DNA of 64,000 nucleotides from Brevinema andersonii (GCA_020722765.1 DYKD01000009.1:1718-65717), one strand, 5' to 3'; positions 4,943-31,689 are shown, counted from the stretch's first letter. Numbers and translations: made by a program. Notes: generated by a model from the sequence alone, not told the origin.

Positions 4943-5377
4943 ATGGGAATGTATACGGAACTGAAACTCAATGTCGAACTTAAGCAGGATGTTCCAGATG
5001 AAGTAATTCATATATTGGAATACATGCTCGACGATTCGGCTCACCAACCACCATTACCTGACCATCCGTTGTTCAAGACCGCAAGATGGAGCAGGATGCT
5101 ACACTGTGGTTCACCGTACTTTAATACGCCGACCTATTCTGAACTGCTGCACGAGGACTCGACATATGTCCTGAACATACAGTGCAACTTCAAGAATTAC
5201 GACGATGAAATCGACAAGTTCCTTGACTGGCTACGGCCACATATACAGACCGAAGGCATAATAGGCCATCATTGGTATGAGACGGATGATGAACCGACGG
5301 CAATATGGAATATGTGCCAAGACGTCGTCTCTGAAGATTTGAGTCTGGAAAAACATACCATCGTGGAGGAAGTGTGA
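4943..5377 (+). CDS. hypothetical protein
   Basis: AGGAGG SD precedes the ATG at 4943 (internal Met of track ORF 4913..5377). Confidence 0.65.
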   Translation: MGMYTELKLNVELKQDVPDEVIHILEYMLDDSAHQPPLPDHPLFKTARWSRMLHCGSPYFNTPTYSELLHEDSTYVLNIQCNFKNYDDEIDKFLDWLRPHIQTEGIIGHHWYETDDEPTAIWNMCQDVVSEDLSLEKHTIVEEV

Positions 5378-8143: not shown

Positions 8144-8339
8144 GGAATTTCTGATGGTGAGTTCAGGTCTGTCCGGACAAGCGGATGCAGTGGCTGAATA
8201 CATGGAAACACACCGGAAATGTTATGTATGCGGGAAACCGCATCTCAGGAAAGGTCGAAAGACATGTTCCGACAGGTGTGAGGAGGCCTATCGCGGCAAT
8301 CACACGTTGTACAGACAAATCAAGGAGGAATTGAAATGA
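8121..8339 (+). CDS. zinc-ribbon protein (CxxC...CSxxC)
   Basis: Contains CYVCGKPHLRKGRKTCSDRCEEAYR. Confidence 0.55.
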   Translation: MNKILIPEEFLMVSSGLSGQADAVAEYMETHRKCYVCGKPHLRKGRKTCSDRCEEAYRGNHTLYRQIKEELK

Positions 8340-11480: not shown

Positions 11481-11758
11481 CCAATGATGACATCTCTTTG
11501 GTAAATATCGTATCGGTACTTACCCCCGAACAGAAAGCTGTTTTTGATAACAGCGGGCTTCACAAGGTCGTGGAAACATTCGGTACTAAGGAAGACAATG
11601 TCACAGTCCTAAAGACTGAGTTGGGCAATCTGGTAATAGCCGAGAATCTCAGGCATATCATACCGGTGAAAATAAATATGGATTTAAGGCATCCTGTACT
11701 CATGCTTGGCGCTTTCAGATGGAGGATATTCGACGACGGAATAGAAATTCATATCTAG
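11477..11758 (+). CDS. hypothetical protein
   Basis: ATGA overlap with the RNase H gene. 93 aa. Confidence 0.55.
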   Translation: MTNDDISLVNIVSVLTPEQKAVFDNSGLHKVVETFGTKEDNVTVLKTELGNLVIAENLRHIIPVKINMDLRHPVLMLGAFRWRIFDDGIEIHI

Positions 11759-11766
11759 GAGGCAGT

Positions 11767-14406
11767 ATGATCGTCCATGTTGACGGAACTGCGATAGACA
11801 TATCCCGGACAAGAAATACCAAGGACAATTTGCTCATTGTCATCAAGGTAACCGGGAACATAGTCAGAAACTATGAGCTGGAAGTGGTAGATTATAAGGC
11901 TATGACTAGCCGATCTACGGTTGAATTTGCCCCAATCCATATGGATTCCAAAGGCAATATCATCGTCAATAATCATGTTGTCATAACCGAAGACAATCTA
12001 ATAAGACTTAACGATGGAACATTCGAGAACTCAGCAATAACGAACGAATTCAATGCTCAGAAGATATTGAATAGAACAATCATAGATAATCCTATCTATG
12101 GCGCACTATTCTTGGCTATTACAGGAAAGGAACCTGAATCTATCAACATGTTATCTCTCAATGATGTAAATGAGATCATCAGTAATAGGGACATTATACC
12201 TAAGATCTGGAATGTCAAATATAAAGGTCTCCATATATGGCGTCTTAATCAGAGAGAAGAATATGTATATCAGGCTGTACTCAGAAAAGTTTACCAGATG
12301 GTATTTGAGAATCTAACAGAATCAAGGCTCAAGTATGCCATACGAAAACTGAATCTTTCCAAACAGGAAGCTATCTTCAACAAGCATCAGGCAATTGCAG
12401 CAAGCCATAAGGTTGATATCCCATGGGAAGCTGGCATGATAAACATGCTGGAATATGATGCCAATCTGATCCCTAATGATACCCCGCAGAACGGAAACGC
12501 AGGTCTGGTTGTCGCCAAAGTCTATAAGGAACAGAATGGAAAACGTTTCTCATATCTTCAGTGGATAAACCAATGGGCTGAAAACTGCTCCCCTAACCGG
12601 CAGATTGTAGCTAGATATGTCACTCAGATTTGCGAACTTACAAACCGGAACTTCAAGGACAATCTTGTCAACCTCTTCGCTGCCAGAATGACATACATGG
12701 GATATACGCTAGAAGATGGTTGCGTCATATCTGAAACAACCGCCGAGAAATTCAGATGTTACGACATCAATATTGACAGGTTCATAGTCCGCAATCCAAA
12801 ACTGACGGTCCAACCTCTCGCCAATTTCGACGCATACATGTACGAATACCTGATACAGGATGATGCGCCATTTGTCAACAGGGGTTACCTTGGAACATAT
12901 AATGGTGATAACGAAATCAGAAGCAAATATTATGGCATAGTCACCAATATTGACATAACAGAAACGGAAATCGAAGGTGAATACCTGGTCATTGTCGAGA
13001 CCACATCAGTATTGAGATTACGTGAAGGGGATAAGTTAGCTGATTTGCATGGCAACAAAGTCACAGTAACAAAGATACTGCCTAGTGAACTGATGCCAAG
13101 AGCTTGTGGTAAATATCTTGATATCATTGTCCCACCATGGATTGGCAAACGCGGTTCTGCAAGCAGACTGAAAGAAGAGGAACATTCAACGGTTCATAAT
13201 GTCGCAGTAGTGACAGATTCCCTGAATGACACATTCTATCAGGATGTGGCGGTAGGTCATGTGACCTATATCCGGTTAAGCCAGCATGCAAAGAAGAAAC
13301 TCAACTATAGCCATAAGACAGAAACCAATTATATGGGGCTGGTACCTAAAGGTTATGGGTTGTACAGTTTTGCAGATGCAATGTACCACATGGAAGCGGT
13401 TGGTGCCAAAGACCTGATGATGGAAATCCTAAATAGGACATATGATACAAACAGTCCAGAACTCCTGAATCAGCATCTCAAATGCTTCGGCTTCGAACTG
13501 ATAAAGGGTAGAATTACAGGGCTTTCAAAGACCCCATTCTTCACTGCTCCTGATAATGATATTATCCTAGACAAATTCGTTAATGCTGAAGAGATTGCAA
13601 CACTTGCAGATCCTACCGGTACGGTCCTTGATCCTAGAATATTATATTCTCATTCATGGATAAGAATACCTGAAGGATTACAGCTGACTTTCCATGCCCT
13701 TACCTCGCAATTACGTATCCACAGCTATGACCATGAATATGTGACACACAAGCTGGTAGATGATATGAGCTGGATGAAACGCTATGATATAAGTTTCGGC
13801 CATCTGATGACAGATGGTAAGAAACAGGTATTCATCCGCATACCTCCCGGATTGCGGACATGGACAACGAAGACAGATACAGTGACCTTATCAGATATTC
13901 AGCATCAGTTAAACCAGCTGATAATGCAATTGAAGACATATGAGCAGACAAGGTTCAGGGCCATGCAATTTGATCCTTCAAGACGAATCAATATGCTCGT
14001 GAACAAGCTGTTGGATTCGATGCTGTCAAGAATATTCACGAAATCAGGATTACTCCGCAACACCATCCATCCAAGAACAAAGTTCTCCATGAATGCGGTA
14101 TTAGGCTCGAATCCTGAACTTCCACTTGACACATGTGAAATCCCATTAGAAGCATTCCATGATTATCTCAAAGATGAGGAATTCCGCAAAGCATATGGAC
14201 TAAGTGAGATAGAAGACCCTGACATAGGCGAGATTAATTTCGCCATTGAAAAGATGGATGCAAGATGCCTCGTAATGAGAAATCCTGCACATCAGGTAAG
14301 GAACTGCCAAGGAATGCGATTTAGAGTATGGGCTGGAAATTCAATCAGGATAAATCCGGCAATCGTCAAAGTCTTCGATAAACAAAACAATCTCCGTATG
14401 TGTTGA
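11767..14406 (+). CDS. single-chain beta/beta-prime-like RNA polymerase, 5' exon (raw ORF; the last ~11-17 codons are probably intronic read-through)
   Basis: AGGAGG SD. Beta motifs: MGYTLEDGCVISE, GDKLADLHGNKVTVTKILPSELMP...DIIVPPWIGKRGSASRL and FADAMYHMEAVGA. These are followed by the beta-prime motif RNPAHQVRNCQGMRFRV...IRINP. Confidence 0.8.
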   Translation: MIVHVDGTAIDISRTRNTKDNLLIVIKVTGNIVRNYELEVVDYKAMTSRSTVEFAPIHMDSKGNIIVNNHVVITEDNLIRLNDGTFENSAITNEFNAQKILNRTIIDNPIYGALFLAITGKEPESINMLSLNDVNEIISNRDIIPKIWNVKYKGLHIWRLNQREEYVYQAVLRKVYQMVFENLTESRLKYAIRKLNLSKQEAIFNKHQAIAASHKVDIPWEAGMINMLEYDANLIPNDTPQNGNAGLVVAKVYKEQNGKRFSYLQWINQWAENCSPNRQIVARYVTQICELTNRNFKDNLVNLFAARMTYMGYTLEDGCVISETTAEKFRCYDINIDRFIVRNPKLTVQPLANFDAYMYEYLIQDDAPFVNRGYLGTYNGDNEIRSKYYGIVTNIDITETEIEGEYLVIVETTSVLRLREGDKLADLHGNKVTVTKILPSELMPRACGKYLDIIVPPWIGKRGSASRLKEEEHSTVHNVAVVTDSLNDTFYQDVAVGHVTYIRLSQHAKKKLNYSHKTETNYMGLVPKGYGLYSFADAMYHMEAVGAKDLMMEILNRTYDTNSPELLNQHLKCFGFELIKGRITGLSKTPFFTAPDNDIILDKFVNAEEIATLADPTGTVLDPRILYSHSWIRIPEGLQLTFHALTSQLRIHSYDHEYVTHKLVDDMSWMKRYDISFGHLMTDGKKQVFIRIPPGLRTWTTKTDTVTLSDIQHQLNQLIMQLKTYEQTRFRAMQFDPSRRINMLVNKLLDSMLSRIFTKSGLLRNTIHPRTKFSMNAVLGSNPELPLDTCEIPLEAFHDYLKDEEFRKAYGLSEIEDPDIGEINFAIEKMDARCLVMRNPAHQVRNCQGMRFRVWAGNSIRINPAIVKVFDKQNNLRMC

Positions 14407-20408: not shown

Positions 20409-21539
20409 ATGGGATATTTCAACAGTGTCGATGATGATGAGAAAGAGGCGTTTTACGGATCTACACGCGAAGACCAGATCCAAATAATCAAGGAGCATCT
20501 GCCTATAAGAACTCTCATGATGGCATTGGACAAGGCCACAGATTGGCCGGAACTTATCACATTGGTCGATGACATCGAGATTAGGATACCGCGCAGTTCC
20601 AAATATGCCAGATTTTTAACCCTATATTCACACAGAAGCAATAGTAGCTATGAATATGTCCATTTACACGAATTCATGCACCTGTTCCACATGCCCAGAT
20701 TCTATGTCCGTAACAACCATGTAAGCAATACCAGACTGTTCACAAAAGGGTATATAAATGCAAAGTTCAAGGCATTGACGCTTGATGGCAGCAGTGCATG
20801 GATAGATAACATAAGCGCGGCCTATCGAATAGCTGCGCTGATGAGCGGTTATTTGCCGGTTGAACTATGTCCGAACAAATATATCACGAACGAGGAAAAG
20901 ACTGCAAGGTTCCTCATGCATAAGCTGGATAAGAAGATTATACCATATATCGTACCAGGTTCCAACAGTTATTATGGCAACCGTGCAATCGGACTGGACA
21001 ATACGAACATGATGAATATCCTGTTGTTATCATTGAATGATATGCCACTGGAACAGGATATGATTGGAACAATGGACTATGATGTGGCATCCGCCATCGC
21101 TGGGCTAATAAATCCCAAATATGCTAGACAGACAGAAATGAATAGGCTGATGGTCGCATGGTATCAGAATGACATACATGCCATATATCCAATGATCTCA
21201 TCTGAAAACCCTATATTGGCACTATGTGCATTACTGCTCAATCCGGGCAAGAAACAGTATCATGTCATGCACCCCACATTCATCCTTGCACAGGCGATAC
21301 TAGGTTATGAGCCGCAGGTCATACCTGATACAATCTGGAAGGAGAGCGGCGAGATAGCCAACATATTGATACAGGTATATTTCAGGAAGATAAGGATAAA
21401 TCCTCCAGGTGGCTTATGTGAACATGAGCAGCTTATCTATGACAGGTTTACGGAACTGCAGACTGAACCAGGTATCAAATATACGTTCGACGATGCCCTT
21501 CCACCAATGACAAAGGAGCAGGATGATGATTGTTATTAA
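20409..21539 (+). CDS. hypothetical protein (376 aa)
   Basis: Long ORF with no motif I recognise. Possibly a distant paralog of 27382..28494. Confidence 0.65.
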   Translation: MGYFNSVDDDEKEAFYGSTREDQIQIIKEHLPIRTLMMALDKATDWPELITLVDDIEIRIPRSSKYARFLTLYSHRSNSSYEYVHLHEFMHLFHMPRFYVRNNHVSNTRLFTKGYINAKFKALTLDGSSAWIDNISAAYRIAALMSGYLPVELCPNKYITNEEKTARFLMHKLDKKIIPYIVPGSNSYYGNRAIGLDNTNMMNILLLSLNDMPLEQDMIGTMDYDVASAIAGLINPKYARQTEMNRLMVAWYQNDIHAIYPMISSENPILALCALLLNPGKKQYHVMHPTFILAQAILGYEPQVIPDTIWKESGEIANILIQVYFRKIRINPPGGLCEHEQLIYDRFTELQTEPGIKYTFDDALPPMTKEQDDDCY

Positions 21540-21948
21540 TGATCCGCCATTCATGGCAAGGCTTGTCGGGCGCAAAGACATAGATAATGGCAATGTCAGG
21601 ATAGATCCAAGGAGCCTTATTTCACCAGGCCTGCCAAAGCTCATAGCGAAATCGGAATTATTCGCGTGGATAGACAAGATCGTACCATATGACCATAATA
21701 ATGATTCATACATTTGCCGGGTATCCATGCTTGGCGTAATTCCTGGTAGCATCATGTATAATGAGGCCAAGCATGTAATGGCTTTCCAATATATTGCCAG
21801 TAATAGTGTAGATATAAAATGGGCGCATCAAAGCTGGCTATTGCCATGCAGACCTATGCGGATAGTGTTGAATGACCAGATCATAGACATCGGAACCGAA
21901 ATCATAAGGAGACAAGATGAGAGAGTCGCAGTTTCACTCAGAGATTAA
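21523..21948 (+). CDS. hypothetical protein
   Basis: 141-aa ORF overlapping its neighbours. Confidence 0.55.
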   Translation: MMIVINDPPFMARLVGRKDIDNGNVRIDPRSLISPGLPKLIAKSELFAWIDKIVPYDHNNDSYICRVSMLGVIPGSIMYNEAKHVMAFQYIASNSVDIKWAHQSWLLPCRPMRIVLNDQIIDIGTEIIRRQDERVAVSLRD

Positions 21949-23031: not shown

Positions 23032-25185
23032 ATGATTACCGTAGACAACGAAGTATACTACGTCCCGCAAGCGATCAAACCAAAAGAAAAAGTCAGAGGT
23101 ACCAGGATATTCCAGTCGATCGCATCGGTTTGTACCAAGATAGGTAAGACATATCTGGCGGAGATCGCCCAGGAAATGGCGAAATTATCCAATAAGACAA
23201 CTACCATAGATACCGTACTTGAGCGCGCAAAAAGCATCACCTTGAGGGATGCCCGCACTGAAGTCAACATGCACGACCTCATAATAGCTACAATGATGGA
23301 AACAGGTATCCAGAACCAGAAGATACTTCAGGTAGTTACCAGATTAGGTGTAGGCAACTCGCCGCTTTATTCGCCACTTGTCGGTAACATACTCCCTGAT
23401 GCCCTGGAGGCGGTCATCGTCGGACGCAGCAACGAGATTGCGAAAGTAGCAATGATGATGAACAAGCGTTCCAGAATCATCGCTCTTGTAGGAAATAAGG
23501 GCGTGGGTAAGAACTCAATCGTGACTGGCGTAGCAAAGGCCATAGCTTCGGGTAAGTTCCCAAGCCTGCATTCAGCTATCCTGGACCTGAACCGCATACT
23601 AGATTTCACCGCCAAATTGGCACCTGAAAATGACGCCAAGAGGATCTTCTTACCAACTGCCATGCTAGAAGATAAGAACTGCTATGTATATATCAACCAT
23701 GAACAATTCGCGAGATCCGTGAATATCATGGATGCTATCGTCTTCCTGATCGACAATGGCCTCAATATCATCCTGAATACCACAGCAGATTACATCAAGC
23801 ATGTGGAAAAGAACGCCAACCTGTTCCATCACATCGAACGTCTGGATGTGGAACAGATGCCGAAGGACCTTGCATTGCAGGCCATCAAGATCTCCAAACC
23901 GCGGATAGAGGAGAAATACATGTGTGAGATTCCGGATTCGATCTGTGAGTTCACAATGAGCATATCCTCGCGGTTCCCGATGGAACAGTCCCAGCCAGGC
24001 AGGACTCTCACTATCCTGGAACAGGCGGTCGCCGTGAAACGGCTCGGTAATCTTGATACAATCGAGAACCTCAATAAGACTGATATTTCCAAGCTGCTGC
24101 TGGACCAGAAGTACCAGGAAGCGAAAGAGCTGATAACCACCAACCATGATTATATCATGACTGGCCTGAAAATAAGCAGAATCATCGTGGAAGAGAAGGA
24201 TATCTCCGACCTGATGGTATCCCATCTGGGAATCAGTCCGAATGTACCGGCAGGTGCTATCACTTCCGACAGCATCAAACAGCTCAGTTTCCTTGAGACA
24301 TATGTCAATGAATACGTCTTCGGGCAGAAGGAAGCTGTAAAGGCCATCTGCGATTCGATCCGCAGAAAGGCGCTGAACATGACAACTGAACATACACCTC
24401 CAAGTTTCCTATTGGTAGGAACTACAGGTACAGGTAAGACATATACTGCCAAGAAGATCGCCGAACTCATGTTCGGTAGCGAGAACGCGCTTATCAGGAT
24501 TGACATGTCGGAATATACCGAACGCCATACCATCTCAAAACTGGTAGGAGCCCCTCCCGGATATGTGGGATATGAGGATGGCGGGCAATTAACGGATAAA
24601 GTCCGCAAGCGGCCACATTCGGTTATCCTACTTGATGAAATCGAGAAAGCGCACAAGGAAGTCCTAAATATCCTGTTGCAGGTCTTATCGGATGGCAGAC
24701 TGACTGATGGCAAAGGAAGGACAGTGTCCTTCAGCGAGTCCATAATAATCATGACATCAAATCTGGGTACTAAGTCCCAAGTTGGCGATATCGGTTTTGG
24801 CGCGGATACTACGAAGATCACCAAAACCAACGTCATGGATTCCGTCAAGGCATTCTTCTCGCCTGAGCTGTTCAACAGGATAGGCAGAATTGTGATGTAC
24901 AACAGTCTTGGTAAGGAAGAGATCCGCAGGATAATCCTACGTGAACAGGATATAGCCTCCAAGAATACAAAATTCAAGTTGCAGTTCACTGAGAAAGTGA
25001 CAGCATATCTTGAGAAGAAGATCGCCGATAACGGTAACGTCGAGATTTATGGAGGTAGGGAAGTCAACAGACTAGTACAGGAACACCTGTTCGACCAAGT
25101 TACTGAAATGATACTCAAGTATGGGAAAACCCCGACAGAAGTATCGGTTGATTATGATACAGAACTTAAAGTGAGCGTAAAATGA
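23032..25185 (+). CDS. ClpC/ClpA-type double-ring AAA+ unfoldase with a degenerate first AAA+ ring (D1)
   Basis: The second ring (D2) has GTTGTGKT, ILLDEIEKAH, GAPPGYVGY and TSNLG...DIGFGA (ClpP-docking loop). D1 has Walker A GNKGVGKNS and Walker B VYINHEQF. Confidence 0.9.
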   Translation: MITVDNEVYYVPQAIKPKEKVRGTRIFQSIASVCTKIGKTYLAEIAQEMAKLSNKTTTIDTVLERAKSITLRDARTEVNMHDLIIATMMETGIQNQKILQVVTRLGVGNSPLYSPLVGNILPDALEAVIVGRSNEIAKVAMMMNKRSRIIALVGNKGVGKNSIVTGVAKAIASGKFPSLHSAILDLNRILDFTAKLAPENDAKRIFLPTAMLEDKNCYVYINHEQFARSVNIMDAIVFLIDNGLNIILNTTADYIKHVEKNANLFHHIERLDVEQMPKDLALQAIKISKPRIEEKYMCEIPDSICEFTMSISSRFPMEQSQPGRTLTILEQAVAVKRLGNLDTIENLNKTDISKLLLDQKYQEAKELITTNHDYIMTGLKISRIIVEEKDISDLMVSHLGISPNVPAGAITSDSIKQLSFLETYVNEYVFGQKEAVKAICDSIRRKALNMTTEHTPPSFLLVGTTGTGKTYTAKKIAELMFGSENALIRIDMSEYTERHTISKLVGAPPGYVGYEDGGQLTDKVRKRPHSVILLDEIEKAHKEVLNILLQVLSDGRLTDGKGRTVSFSESIIIMTSNLGTKSQVGDIGFGADTTKITKTNVMDSVKAFFSPELFNRIGRIVMYNSLGKEEIRRIILREQDIASKNTKFKLQFTEKVTAYLEKKIADNGNVEIYGGREVNRLVQEHLFDQVTEMILKYGKTPTEVSVDYDTELKVSVK

Positions 25186-26561: not shown

Positions 26562-27395
26562 ATGCTGATTTGTCGTTATACATCACATGCTGAATTCGAC
26601 CTCGATATGGAACACAAAGGCATAGCCACGGAATATCATGCGAATTTGGCTAAACTGATATTTACTCATGTTGCACCGATTATCAGATCTGGAAATGCGT
26701 ATGTCGCAGGGGGTGCAGCAAAAGACCTGATGGCAGCGGTCTATCCGACTACAGATCCTGGTATGAGGGCAAAACTGGCCAAATATGGATCAACATCAGA
26801 CGATATAGATATCTACATGAGAAGCGATGACCCGGCAAAACTTCAGCTGATGCAGGATGAAATAGAGAGTAAGTTCAAGCTGGTGAACGAGACCCAAATC
26901 TCGCTCAATTACATTATTGAAACAAGATACATGACAAAGAAGTTGCAGCTTATCAAACCAAACATAACGGATAATCGCGCATCATTCTACGGAGAGCCAG
27001 ATGAACTCGTATCGGCGTTCGACCTAAGTGCCTGTCAAGCCAGCTTGCAGTGCACGATGCCGGAATGCATAGAATTACGGAGTACCTCGGATTGGGAGGA
27101 AACAATGACCACTGGAATCGTGAAACTAGTGAACCAATACAACCCACTATCAGGATTGTTACGGTTAAGCAAGTATGCCGCGAAAGGATTCAAGATCCAG
27201 TTAAAATCATATGTGAATATCCTGAGATATTGGGATGACCGTACAGACATCGAGAAGACGGAATTCTTCAAGCTTGTCGGCAAAATGTCAGAAGGCAAGC
27301 AGTTAAGCAATATGGAATACGAATTCGCATTGAGGACAACGATAGGTATGGCAGGAATGCTAAAATACAAGGAGCTAAGGAATGAATCCGGTTGA
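26562..27395 (+). CDS. possible Pol-beta-fold nucleotidyltransferase
   Basis: AGGAAKDL ... DDIDIY resembles the GG..RD / DxD motifs of CCA-adding-type NTases, but the spacer is unusually long. Confidence 0.4.
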   Translation: MLICRYTSHAEFDLDMEHKGIATEYHANLAKLIFTHVAPIIRSGNAYVAGGAAKDLMAAVYPTTDPGMRAKLAKYGSTSDDIDIYMRSDDPAKLQLMQDEIESKFKLVNETQISLNYIIETRYMTKKLQLIKPNITDNRASFYGEPDELVSAFDLSACQASLQCTMPECIELRSTSDWEETMTTGIVKLVNQYNPLSGLLRLSKYAAKGFKIQLKSYVNILRYWDDRTDIEKTEFFKLVGKMSEGKQLSNMEYEFALRTTIGMAGMLKYKELRNESG

Positions 27396-29339: not shown

Positions 29340-30568
29340 ATGGGCAAGGCTGGGAAATCACTGCTTGATCCTGCTACTGAGGAGATTTCCGGCACAGAAG
29401 CCCTACCTGCTAAGAAGATACAGAAACAGATCTACCGTAAGATAGAGGATCTGTATGATTTTGTGTCTACAGGTGTCCCTGTCATGTTCGTACATGACAG
29501 GGACATCCGGGGTTTCTTCTGCACGGACAATACGAAAATCGGGATCGGACCACTATTGGATACACATAAGATCTATATGATGTCACAAGGTTTCAGCATG
29601 ATCTCGATCGAGAAACAGAAATTGGCGAATCATACCATCAAGTTCACTGAAGTGAACGCGCCGGATGAGATAGGAACAATGTCACCAATAACGAATCCGG
29701 CACTGGGCCTGGATTATTTCCTCGACAAGATGCCGACAAAAATTGTAGGTGAAACAACAGATGCAGTCCTGGTTTTGTCATATGATCCGGATATAATCAA
29801 TGACAATAACAAGATAACAGGCACCTTAAGGGACCATTATAATGATATGGTCATGACGATCCAGCGTGACATCGTGAAAAGACGACCAAACCAGCACGTT
29901 AACACAAGGAATAGTCCTACACTACATACATCAGTGGGAGAATATGATCCAGGCTCAAACGATGGAACGCCAGAATCCATTCCTTCTAGAGTTGTGATAA
30001 TATTGAGTTCGAGACCGCAATTACCTCCAAGGCTAAATGGTTATTGTCTCAATGTTGGCACAATCATCAGACATTTGGTCTCGAATACGAAAGGTGAAAA
30101 CAGGTTACCACATAGCCTGACAAGTAGCCTCACCACTACTGAAATACTATTGGCACAAAGGTTATATGATACATCGGCTGATGATGCGAAAGTAAAACGC
30201 TTCAGAAAAGCGGTATTCACTTCCAATAATGTCATTGAAGACATTACTGATTATCCGTCCATGAAAGACATAGGCGGGTATGATAACCTGAAAGCGTTCA
30301 TCGAAACTAGGAAGACATTGCTTGATAAGTACTATAATAAGATGCTGGAACGTAATCTGCAGATCAAAGGTATCTTCATTGCAGGTGTTCCAGGATCCGG
30401 TAAAACCCAGATATTGAAAGCCCTAGGTTCCTACTGGGGATTGCCGGCATACCGTTTACGGCTAGAAGCGGTCTTCGGCAGATATGTCGGAGATTCGGAA
30501 AGTGCGCTGATTTCGGCGCTGGAAAACCTGCAGAAACTGTCCCCTTGCTTCGTATTATTGGATGAGAT
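29340..30568 (+). CDS. classical-clade AAA+ ATPase (CDC48/FtsH-like module), 5' exon
   Basis: Walker A GVPGSGKT, then YVGDSE, then Walker B FVLLDEI at the exon end. The raw ORF runs on to 30596. Confidence 0.8.
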
Positions 30569-31193
30569 TAAATTATCAGTCTCCTTGGCGGCGTGAGCCG
30601 TCATGAAAAAGCGGGTCAATTGCTGGAAACCCCTTAAGCCTATTAGGCTACAACATAATCCGCAAGGATAAGTGTGAATGCTTGAAAACTAATAGGATTG
30701 GACAATCAGCAGCCACTTCCTGGGAACAGGAAAGGTTCAGAGACTACGAGTCCGCTAAGTTGGCAGCCAGCTTCTTCTAGTAGATAATATACTAAATACT
30801 AGAAGGAGTAGGCTATGATGTATAACATTGTACAAGCATCAAAGATGCTAAACAGAAGCAAACGAGAAGCTGTACTAGAACTAGATAATAATGAATGTCA
30901 GTTATGTGGCGATGACCAAGATTTGGTCGTACATCATATAGATGAGAAAAGCAGTAGAAATTCAGATACTCCAAATAATAGTTTGGATAATCTGATTACG
31001 CTCTGTAAACAATGTCATTATTATTGTCATTGGCATACTAGATTTAATGCTATTAAGCATAAAATTCTAGTTATTGCCGACAAGTTCAAGTTATTTATTA
31101 GTGATCAACTTAAAGATATAGTCCGAACTCGTATGAGAATACGAGAGGATGGCAGAAATGACCATCCAGCCGGATAACCGGTGTTAACAGTTG
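30569..31193 (+). mobile_element. group I intron carrying an HNH homing endonuclease
   Basis: R element GTTCAGAGACTAC at 30735-30747. S element AAGATATAGTCC at 31113-31124. P7 pairs GACTA with TAGTC. P1 pairs GAGAT (30564-68) with GTCTC (30579-83), with a U-G at the splice site. P10 pairs TTATCA (30573-78) with TGATAA (31194-99). The terminal intron G (omega-G) is at 31193. There are several GNRA hairpins. Confidence 0.85.
30815..31177 (+). CDS. HNH homing endonuclease (intron-encoded)
   Basis: CQLCGDDQDLVVHHID...NLITLCKQCHYYCH. GGAG SD. AT-rich relative to the flanks. Confidence 0.85.
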   Translation: MMYNIVQASKMLNRSKREAVLELDNNECQLCGDDQDLVVHHIDEKSSRNSDTPNNSLDNLITLCKQCHYYCHWHTRFNAIKHKILVIADKFKLFISDQLKDIVRTRMRIREDGRNDHPAG

Positions 31194-31689
31194 TGATAAG
31201 TCATTAGCAGGAGTAGGAGAAGGTGAAGTAGCAGGTTCCGATGTACCTAAGAGGGTCTTCGGTATCCTATTGGATAAGATGGCTGAAAGTACAGGCATCA
31301 TTTTCGGTGCCAGTGCCAACAGGGTAAAATCCATACCAGAGGAATTCATGAGACGTGGTCGTTTTGACCGCATCTTCTTCATGGATCTTCCGGATATAAA
31401 AGCTAGGATGAAGATCATATCTATCCATCTAGGCAAGCACGGTTACGATCATAAGCAGTTCACACATGATGAACTGACACAGATGGTTGATTCAATGGAT
31501 AAGTTTACAGGTGCGGAAATCGAATCGGTGATTACTGAGGCGATTATCCAGTCCCTGGTAGACAATGATGGTAAGCTTACTGCTAGCCATATCATAAAGA
31601 AAGCCAACGAAACAACAACCATCGACAAGAACAAAACAGACATCAAGGAACTCGCTGCATGGGCTGAAAAGTTCGCAACGAAGGCCTGA
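31194..31689 (+). CDS. classical-clade AAA+ ATPase, 3' exon
   Basis: The spliced junction reads LLDEI|DKSLAG. ASANRVKSIPEEFMRRGRFDRIFFMDLPD matches the sensor-1/Arg-finger/second-region-of-homology (SRH) pattern. Track ORF 31270..31689 has no SD. Confidence 0.8.

Follow-up and report, generated by a model that had tools for sequence, protein, structure and literature searches.

The window, by which we mean the whole 64-kb stretch of DNA analysed here, represents the replication module of a large phage, with plus-strand genes throughout. Among them are those for PolB, a primase-helicase, RecA, a clamp loader, an SNF2 helicase and an RNA polymerase beta-like protein, as well as SbcC-like and Cas4-like nucleases. 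The gene of interest encodes an AAA ATPase, and gene callers split its locus into three ORFs, one of 418 aa, one of 120 aa and one further downstream, with the 418-aa and 120-aa products being on record. Between the two parts of the ATPase coding sequence lies a group I intron that carries an HNH nuclease gene in one of its loops. The features of the locus are collected in Table 1; coordinates count from the first base of the window, and a slash within a sequence marks the insertion or splice site or, for helices, parts the two strands.

Table 1. Features of the intron-containing ATPase locus (two ranges denote the two strands of a helix)
Feature	Position	Strand	Remarks
Exon 1, AAA ATPase	29340..30568	+	residues 1-409 and two bases of codon 410; from ORF list, Pfam and alignments
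Walker A, GVPGSGKT	aa 349-356		exon 1
Walker B, FVLLDE	ends D408-E409		exon 1
Group I intron, 625 nt	30569..31193	+	inserted behind second base of Ile410 codon
P1	30564-68 / 30579-83	+	exon GAGAU and guide GUCUC; U30568-G30579 wobble at 5′ splice site
P10	30573-78 / 31194-99	+	UUAUCA (within P1 loop) and exon-2 UGAUAA, 6 bp
P2	30587-92 / 30597-602	+	GGCGGC/GCCGUC, GUGA loop
P3	30610-16 / 30750-56	+	
P4-P6 domain	30621..30736	+	
P4	30621-26 / 30706-11	+	
P5, weak	30630-31 / 30700-01	+	2 bp, then two C-U mismatches
P5a	30640-46 / 30689-95	+	
P5b	30653-61 / 30666-75	+	GCAA loop
P6	30712-14 / 30734-36	+	
P6a	30717-22 / 30727-32	+	GGAA loop
P7	30740, 30742-46 / 31119-24	+	G, bulged A30741, GACUA; 5′ strand inside R element
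P8	30757-63 / 31105-11	+	5′ strand AAGUUGG; HNH ORF in loop; from covariance model alignment
Shine-Dalgarno hairpin	30765..30814	+	predicted -23.6 kcal/mol
HNH nuclease ORF, 120 aa	30815..31177	+	34% G+C vs 44% in window; Pfam, PHROG
P8 3′ strand, J8/7, P7 3′ strand	31105..31124	+	within HNH coding sequence; S element encodes LKDIV
P9	31128-34 / 31139-45	+	GAGA loop
P9.1	31147-54 / 31159-67	+	GAAA loop, bulged A31161
P9.2	31169-73 / 31178-82	+	AUAA loop containing ORF stop UAA 31175-77
Terminal G (omega G)	31193	+	equivalent G at 1095 in L005
Exon 2	31194..31689	+	last base of codon 410, then residues 411-574
Second region of homology, ASANRVKSIPEEFMRRGRFDR (RRGRFDR)			exon 2
Joined exon bases at junction, intron-less form	TTGGATGAGAT / TGATAAGTCA		

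An initial annotation of this DNA had proposed a group I intron and suggested a cmscan search of Rfam as a check. Run on the window, that search returned a match to RF00028, the Rfam group I family, at 30559-31145 on the plus strand. It scored 65.1 bits (gathering score, 50; E 3e-14) and spanned model positions 1-253 of 253. Such a match is far beyond chance and confirms the observation. No other RNA family was detected by Rfam anywhere in the 64 kb, even with the threshold relaxed to E ≤ 1; a second intron was not found there, either by Rfam at that threshold or with the P3-P6 core model described below, nor were any tRNA genes. The motif strings quoted in the annotation are each present at the given position, including the R element (30735-47), the S element (31113-24) and the GNRA loops GCAA (30662-65), GGAA (30723-26) and GAGA (31135-38). 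To these loops we can add GUGA in L2 (30593-96) and GAAA in L9.1 (31155-58). Indeed, every defining feature of a group I intron that can be tested in sequence was found. We therefore conclude with high confidence that the pre-mRNA of this phage AAA ATPase contains, at 30569-31193, a group I intron predicted to be self-splicing, a reading carried by the sequence, structure, covariation, exact junction and domain identities established in this work.

Removal of the intron joins AU/U and yields a 574-aa product in frame, in which a single contiguous PF00004 AAA domain (residues 346-474, E 2.9e-21) spans the junction at codon 410. The intron had been described as splitting the ATPase at its Walker B motif, and the insertion indeed lies one codon past D408-E409. 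Similarly, the in-frame restoration of FVLLDEI/D is borne out by the uninterrupted PF00004 domain and by homologs that align gap-free across the junction, and the RGRFDR motif assigned to exon 2 is present there as RRGRFDR and conserved in homologs. With GVPGSGKT, LLDE and RRGRFDR all conserved among the ATPase homologs, the protein qualifies as a classical AAA ATPase. For annotation this means that gene callers fragment the gene, whose correct product is the 574-aa ATPase.

A search of 5.8 billion proteins uncovered three uninterrupted full-length homologs, P0002 (577 aa), P0003 (580 aa) and P0004 (559 aa), which are 55%, 53% and 33% identical to the spliced ATPase, respectively, and align to it across the junction without a gap. 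Over this junction the uninterrupted homologs read LLDEIDKSLAGVGEGEV; P0002 and P0003 read LLDEIDKSLAGVGEGEVAGSDVPKR, an exact match to the spliced window product. The contig encoding P0003 (L001) has the gene order Zn-ribbon, SSB, ATPase, which is also the order around the window gene, as seen in L004, a 12-kb contig that is identical to the window and a duplicate of the same locus; the contig encoding P0002 (L003) is short and starts at the ATPase gene. The best 80 ATPase homologs listed from viral contigs are all contiguous across residues 409/410 and intron-less, and hence the ATPase gene does not need the intron. Against GenBank phages, the ATPase gene gave no match by megablast, and tblastn retrieved only distant AAA homologs with at most 37% identity over the C-terminal half.

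Note that positions 30569 and 31194 are both U, such that the mRNA alone cannot separate a 30568/31194 junction from a 30569/31195 junction. The latter was rejected because, while giving the same mRNA, it would make U rather than G the last intron base; we chose the former because it leaves a terminal G and lets P1 end in the U-G wobble. The splice sites of the initial annotation, 30568/31194, are thus retained, and three independent lines support them: the covariance model match, the gap-free alignment of homologs over the junction, and an intron at the same site in another phage (L005, below).

Using the covariance model alignment, pairwise comparison with L005 and thermodynamic folds (RNAfold), we assigned the helices P1 to P9.2. 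The strands proposed for P1 (GAGAT and GTCTC) and the complementary strands proposed for P10 (TTATCA and TGATAA) can be read in the sequence at the expected places, as can the G at 31193 named as the last intron base; L005 has a compensating P1 pair and an equivalent terminal G. P7 required some revision. While the strings GACTA/TAGTC stand, the helix is longer than proposed, comprising 6 bp with a bulged A30741 and G30740-C31124 as the sixth pair. The neighbourhood of the G-binding site, as read from the sequence, accordingly comprises G30740-C31124, the bulged A30741 and G30742-C31123, and the 5′ strand of P7 is identical in L005. Downstream of P9 we recognized two further hairpins, P9.1 and P9.2. 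The reading frame of exon 1 terminates at a UGA (30594-96) in the P2 loop, and an in-frame stop is placed likewise in L005.

The helices P7.1 and P7.2 define subgroup IA, the classic phage intron type. In the window intron, P7 and P3′ are separated by 3 nt (CGA, 30747-49) and P8 follows directly after P3′, and this spacing means that P7.1/P7.2 are absent; an insertion between P7 and P3′ was likewise seen in none of the 104 relatives in the family alignment. On that customary definition of IA, we rejected an assignment to subgroup IA2 and place the intron in no subgroup. P7.1/P7.2 count as class-discriminating elements (review PMC3984707), and a 2025 survey argues that the old subgroups suit phage introns poorly (PMC11878797).

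The most informative relative resides on L005, a 21-kb metagenomic phage contig on which the gene for the HNH protein P0034 is directly followed by sequence for the C-terminal portion of an AAA ATPase homolog. Its intron sits at the same codon (LLLDEV/EKLLSGVGEGEV), with the 5′ splice site after base 77 and the terminal G at 1095, and the two exon 2 sequences share 42% protein identity. Comparing window and L005 over 13 helices, we counted 17 pairs that changed on both sides (P1, 1; P2, 2; P5a, 4; P5b, 1; P8, 1; P9, 5; P9.1, 3) and none that was broken, which argues for selection on pairing. In P1, for example, L005 reads GAGGU/GCCUC, an A-U to G-C compensatory change, and such changes account for 5 of 7 pairs in P9 and for 3 of 6 in the outer helix of P9.1. 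RNAfold arranges P9, P9.1 and P9.2 alike in the two introns; the sequence of P9.2 differs, and P10 is shorter in L005 (3 bp vs 6 bp).

Between window and L005, ribozyme identity amounts to 75% for the 5′ domain and 65% for the 3′ domain, compared with 51-54% for exon DNA. This better conservation of the ribozyme would fit either lateral spread or a stronger constraint on the RNA. The L005 intron was not detected by Rfam at E ≤ 1, presumably because of its 768-nt ORF, and its homology rests on pairwise alignment and a purpose-built model. Homing is in keeping with the finding of this intron at one and the same site in two phages whose ATPases are 42% identical. A co-conversion signal was absent; that is, exon bases beside the intron are no more alike between window and L005 than those of the distal exon. 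Among the loci found, only the window, its duplicate L004 and L005 have an intron at this site in the ATPase. The window and L005 make a clean natural pair: one intron, one insertion site, and an endonuclease gene that is short in the former and long in the latter.

Beyond this pair, scanning metagenomes with a P4/Q...P4′ pattern recovered at least 120 loci, and Rfam classed 16 of 20 sampled loci as group I introns. With a P3-P6 covariance model (R1) built from the window and L005 introns, we obtained 104 full or near-full matches in metagenome loci. Scored across 98 distinct related introns, the R1 alignment has standard pairs in 87.5% of its cells, compared with 30-44% once partners are slid. 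Both sides have changed in 934 cells (at most 160 in slid controls), and the covariation score is 0.563 (at most 0.10 in slid controls). Note that this alignment was fitted to the model, so that its pair counts favour the modelled structure, and that P4 was preset by the search pattern. P3 shows changes on both sides at all 7 of its pairs. None of the other intron-core loci retrieved by the metagenome scan carried the ATPase. Exact-pattern scans of viral contigs for two family-specific core strings gave no match; the matches of a 15-mer scan (at least 120, over 15 bases only) were taken as chance, none being an intron by blastn with the 5′ domain; and a strict R/S regular expression was dropped because it missed most relatives.

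Among GenBank phages, 221 records contain the P3-P6 core, mostly at 72-80% identity, with 24 records at 80-90%. They include Vibrio ICP1, Bacillus BpSp and phages of Pseudomonas, Serratia, Staphylococcus, Lactococcus and Flavobacterium. Most of the listed records have no annotated feature beneath the match, and intron annotation is absent from those of both ICP1 and BpSp. The ribozyme is thus part of a large phage lineage whose annotation is poor.

As the initial annotation had noted, the HNH ORF and the ribozyme core overlap. The shared segment is 31105-31177: the last 73 nt of the ORF, stop codon included, constitute P8′, J8/7, P7′, P9, P9.1 and half of P9.2. The compensatory changes in P9/P9.1 alter amino acids (RTRMRIRE in the window, QTKQRCLE in L005), so that in this stretch, judging from the pairwise comparison, it is the RNA pairing rather than the protein sequence that is kept. 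Pairing upheld by compensatory changes within coding DNA makes P9/P9.1 a useful teaching case of dual constraint.

The start of the ORF, too, is embedded in RNA structure. A 9-bp hairpin had been placed upstream of the Shine-Dalgarno sequence; its two strings are present (CTTCTAGTA at 30774, TACTAGAAG at 30797), but the Shine-Dalgarno sequence lies inside the hairpin, with GGAG (30805-08) in the 3′ arm. The stem comprises 13 bp (30770-82/30797-809) and an outer 4 bp (30765-68/30811-14). L005 has an equivalent hairpin of other sequence, with a stability of -16.8 kcal/mol, in which its own AAGGAG is likewise enclosed, and in both introns the hairpin is predicted to sequester the Shine-Dalgarno sequence of the HNH gene. 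ORFs that run into the core are tightly controlled (review PMC3984707). With its ribosome-binding site locked in this way, the HNH gene would be expected to show restrained translation until after splicing, or to be translated from a separate transcript.

The coordinates given for the HNH ORF proved right, and its product matches PF01844 (29.1 bits vs a cutoff of 21.4) and many PHROG HNH families. In an alignment of 38 relatives, there is no variation at H40, H41, C64, H68 and H72 and next to none at C28, C31, N59 and C67; the four cysteines and the His/Asn/His positions are all present in the window ORF. AlphaFold2 models the protein with a mean pLDDT of 82.9, reaching 91-97 in 10-residue core blocks, and with a strand-strand-helix arrangement (37-41, 60-64, 65-77) that may correspond to the beta-beta-alpha-metal fold of HNH nucleases. 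The best Foldseek hits of this model, weak and not significant, were Cap5 (E 0.039) and ScoMcrA (E 0.13), both of them HNH proteins. Kinship with I-HmuI was rejected: neither the window ORF nor P0034 matches Pfam HNH_3 or NUMOD, and I-HmuI was matched neither by P0034 in the PDB sequence search nor by the model of the window ORF in the fold search.

When used as query in a word-indexed protein search, the HNH ORF retrieved nothing but itself and no relative sharing 5-residue words. By exhaustive HMMER search, the closest relative is the 255-aa P0034 of L005, whose residues 146-248 align with ORF residues 15-117 at 56% identity. What the window ORF is missing are some 130 N-terminal-side residues of P0034, including a CxxC...CxxC stretch. 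Besides HNH, no domain that could serve as a DNA-binding module was detected in the window ORF by Pfam or PHROG, and the N-terminus of P0034 has no Pfam match. Since the ORF is shortened relative to P0034, the label homing endonuclease is one we infer, and activity is uncertain. Features of the homing class are present, namely, the location of the ORF within a group I intron and the occupation of the same site in diverged host genes (window and L005).

These observations raise the possibility that the ribozyme is functional while the HNH gene is a decaying remnant that has lost, by an in-frame deletion, a probably DNA-binding region still kept by the L005 protein. The intron would then be immobile, or mobile only via a nuclease acting in trans, like defunct T4 I-TevIII; trans-homing of defunct endonucleases is documented (PMC2790892). 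We see this as a serious contender that falls somewhat short of an even chance, and as a refinement of the best explanation rather than an exclusive alternative to it. The first ~15 residues of the window protein (MMYNIVQASKMLNRS) resemble, by eye, those of P0034 (MLYSTVECQKILSKS), and together with the hairpin that precedes both genes, this likeness suggests an internal in-frame deletion; a global alignment, however, did not place the two N-termini together, which leaves the deletion model short of proof. Many relatives, moreover, carry N-terminal CxxC zinc-ribbon extensions, as seen in their consensus, but such an extension is short or lacking in HNH proteins of 83-130 aa, which are common among the relatives as well. 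What further speaks against decay is that the ORF has kept an open frame of 120 codons at a G+C content of 34%, that its catalytic and zinc-binding residues are all intact, and that its core is predicted to fold confidently.

Following the established group I pathway, we infer catalysis, translational control, nuclease activity and homing for the intron as follows. A ribosome arriving from exon 1 would read 9 intron codons and halt at the UGA in the P2 loop, and the RNA would fold into P1-P9.2. Free guanosine bound at P7 would then attack the phosphate after U30568, held in P1 by the U-G wobble, while P10 would align exon 2. With G31193 entering the G site, the exons would be joined at the AU/U codon, giving an ATPase with an intact module from Walker B to the second region of homology. 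The HNH nuclease, in turn, would nick or cut intron-less alleles near GATGARAT/TGATAAG, and recombinational repair would copy the intron into the cut allele.

The overlap of ORF and ribozyme, combined with the Shine-Dalgarno hairpin, also allows for a mutually exclusive switch, in which each transcript either folds and splices to make ATPase, or is translated through P8′-P9.2, which would unfold the ribozyme and yield nuclease with no splicing; we consider such a switch unlikely. If it were true, the element would time the ATPase of a replication module rather than being a neutral parasite, and the short HNH protein would be kept, despite its missing DNA-binding part, for its role in the switch. 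That the intron should be mainly a regulator, with the hairpin and a possible internal promoter timing ATPase production, seems to us equally improbable. The overlap and the conservation of the hairpin are in line with this idea, as is the finding that splicing of td/I-TevI requires delayed translation (Gibb and Edgell 2010, as cited in PMC3984707). The promoter would be a sigma-70-like TTGGCA-17-GATAAT at 30760-88, its -10 element in the hairpin loop, with TGATATAAT at the same place in L005; however, matches of this kind occur at chance level (9 sites vs 7.5 expected), and the best 80 viral-contig ATPase homologs listed do without the intron altogether.

That the locus is instead a splicing-dead relic, be it an ATPase pseudogene or a gene expressed as two polypeptides, one from each side of a free-standing HNH gene, is very hard to reconcile with a complete ribozyme core that scores above the Rfam threshold, two open exons that share one phase, the selection for pairing shown by 17 compensatory changes against L005, and a split past Walker B that would part the ATP-binding half of one AAA domain from its arginine-finger half, even though three separate ORFs are called (418 aa, 120 aa and the downstream ORF) and a TTG-started ORF (31270-31689) lies within exon 2.

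A self-splicing intron in an AAA ATPase gene, as preferred here, is a clean, well-supported case of a mobile element whose kind is well known rather than new. Four textbook traits recur: a conserved phage gene, insertion at a catalytic codon, a loop ORF overlapping the core and a sequestered ribosome-binding site (PMC3984707). Homing endonucleases target functionally critical codons (PMC3984707), and a classical AAA ATPase, hit right past the Walker B Asp-Glu, now joins the list of phage genes with group I introns. This host gene, the absence of P7.1/P7.2, and the pair of long and short endonuclease genes are what is new in this intron; the arrangement itself is textbook, and nothing about it challenges current understanding.

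T4 td belongs to subgroup IA2 with P7.1/P7.2, and its ORF, located in P6a, encodes a GIY-YIG enzyme. The window intron differs from it in having no P7.1/P7.2, an ORF that runs from P8 into the 3′ core, an HNH enzyme and an AAA ATPase as host. In both, a conserved enzyme gene of a phage is interrupted by a self-splicing group I intron whose endonuclease ORF sits in a peripheral loop; the td/I-TevI system likewise has its ribosome-binding site sequestered in a hairpin, with translation delayed relative to splicing (PMC3984707, its refs 35-36). The nrdB intron of T-even phages with I-TevIII resembles ours in being a phage group I intron with an HNH gene that exists in long and deleted forms in related phages, full-length in RB3 and truncated and defunct in T4 (PMC2790892). 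There, the host gene and the ribozyme lineage differ, and what the window ORF retains is the catalytic HNH domain.

HNH-encoding introns in phage replication genes are further known from the DNA polymerase genes of SPO1 and SP82 (I-HmuI, I-HmuII), from Bastillevirinae and from cyanophage Pf-WMP3 (I-PfoP3I), and HNH-encoding phage introns carry the nuclease in a loop, disrupting the ribozyme (PMC11878797; PMC3428280). The enzymes of all these introns carry DNA-binding modules of the NUMOD or I-HmuI type, and most of the introns are IA-like, whereas the window ORF encodes a classical PF01844 protein with a Cys4 zinc site. Within the ribozyme lineage itself, the P3-P6 core of ICP1 also adjoins an HNH homing endonuclease gene. 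Here, the host contexts differ from that of the window: the ICP1 match lies downstream of a tape-measure CDS and the HNH gene, and that of BpSp between hypothetical genes.

The UGA that closes the exon-1 reading frame lies at the equivalent position in the window intron (30594-30596) and in L005 (103-105), a metagenome phage contig with a homologous intron at the same ATPase codon. In both introns it is contained in the GUGA tetraloop that caps P2, a placement that agrees with a stalled ribosome letting the core fold.

Overlapping the stem-loop that covers the Shine-Dalgarno sequence of the HNH ORF, we also noted a σ70-like site at window positions 30760-30788 (TTGGCA-17-GATAAT), the -10 element of which sits in the hairpin loop. 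The equivalent place in L005 (~290-300) reads TGATATAAT, an extended -10. An RNA initiated at the window site would lack the 5′ arm of the hairpin, leaving the Shine-Dalgarno sequence freed. This putative arrangement is reminiscent of the late promoters of T4 I-TevI, where the Shine-Dalgarno sequence is likewise freed. Statistically, the window match is at chance level, with nine σ70-like sites found versus 7.5 expected.

The L005 group I intron itself (78-1095, with a 768-nt ORF in P8) gave no match in an Rfam cmscan even at E ≤ 1. A clear intron was thus missed by the search. The standard Rfam model probably under-detects introns with long loop ORFs. Using a P3-P6 core model built from the window and L005 introns, we found five matches within ~2 kb on the minus strand of another metagenome contig, L208 (ULTU01032625.1, 2133-4184); this tight packing suggests one gene with several introns of the window-intron lineage. 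Two matches each were obtained in L226, L280, L210, L231/L284, L246, L259, L282/L300, and L301. Elsewhere among the metagenome loci, L271 carries a LOOT RNA (5139-5257, 94.6 bits) whose neighbors are tRNA genes and an intron.

Relatives of the ribozyme core also occur in inter-CDS gaps of isolated phages, namely, Vibrio phage ICP1 (MN419153, 2501-2707 of the extracted locus L326) and Bacillus phage BpSp (2501-2631 of L327). Intron annotation is absent over the core matches in both records; the ICP1 match adjoins the tape-measure CDS and a gene annotated as "HNH homing endonuclease."

L001, a contig of a related phage with an uninterrupted ATPase homolog, encodes a GIY-YIG/NUMOD3 endonuclease (21352-21743) ~10 kb downstream of that gene, and homing-type nucleases therefore circulate in the phage group of the window and L001. 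The same contig contains a tRNA-like or YrlA-like fragment (8220-8275) with a subthreshold score of 25.7 bits.

Further genes of the window
Feature	Length (aa)	Position	Evidence
RNA polymerase-like ORF	895	11719-14406	RNA_pol_Rpb2_6 domain, E 2e-9
ClpB-like ATPase	717	23032-25185	AAA_2, E 2e-59; ClpB_D2-small
Candidate Gad2	277	26562-27395	Precomputed PF26128 match of the copy in L004, a 12-kb contig identical to the window

Among other window genes, the RNA polymerase-like ORF looks like a phage-encoded β-like subunit of a multisubunit RNA polymerase. The ClpB-like protein, within the phage replication region, is a second AAA+ protein near the intron-bearing ATPase and unrelated to it. Our own Pfam search with the candidate Gad2 gene returned no match; PF26128 denotes Gad2, an anti-Gabija protein, and the syntenic counterpart in L001 is weakly labeled as Gad2.
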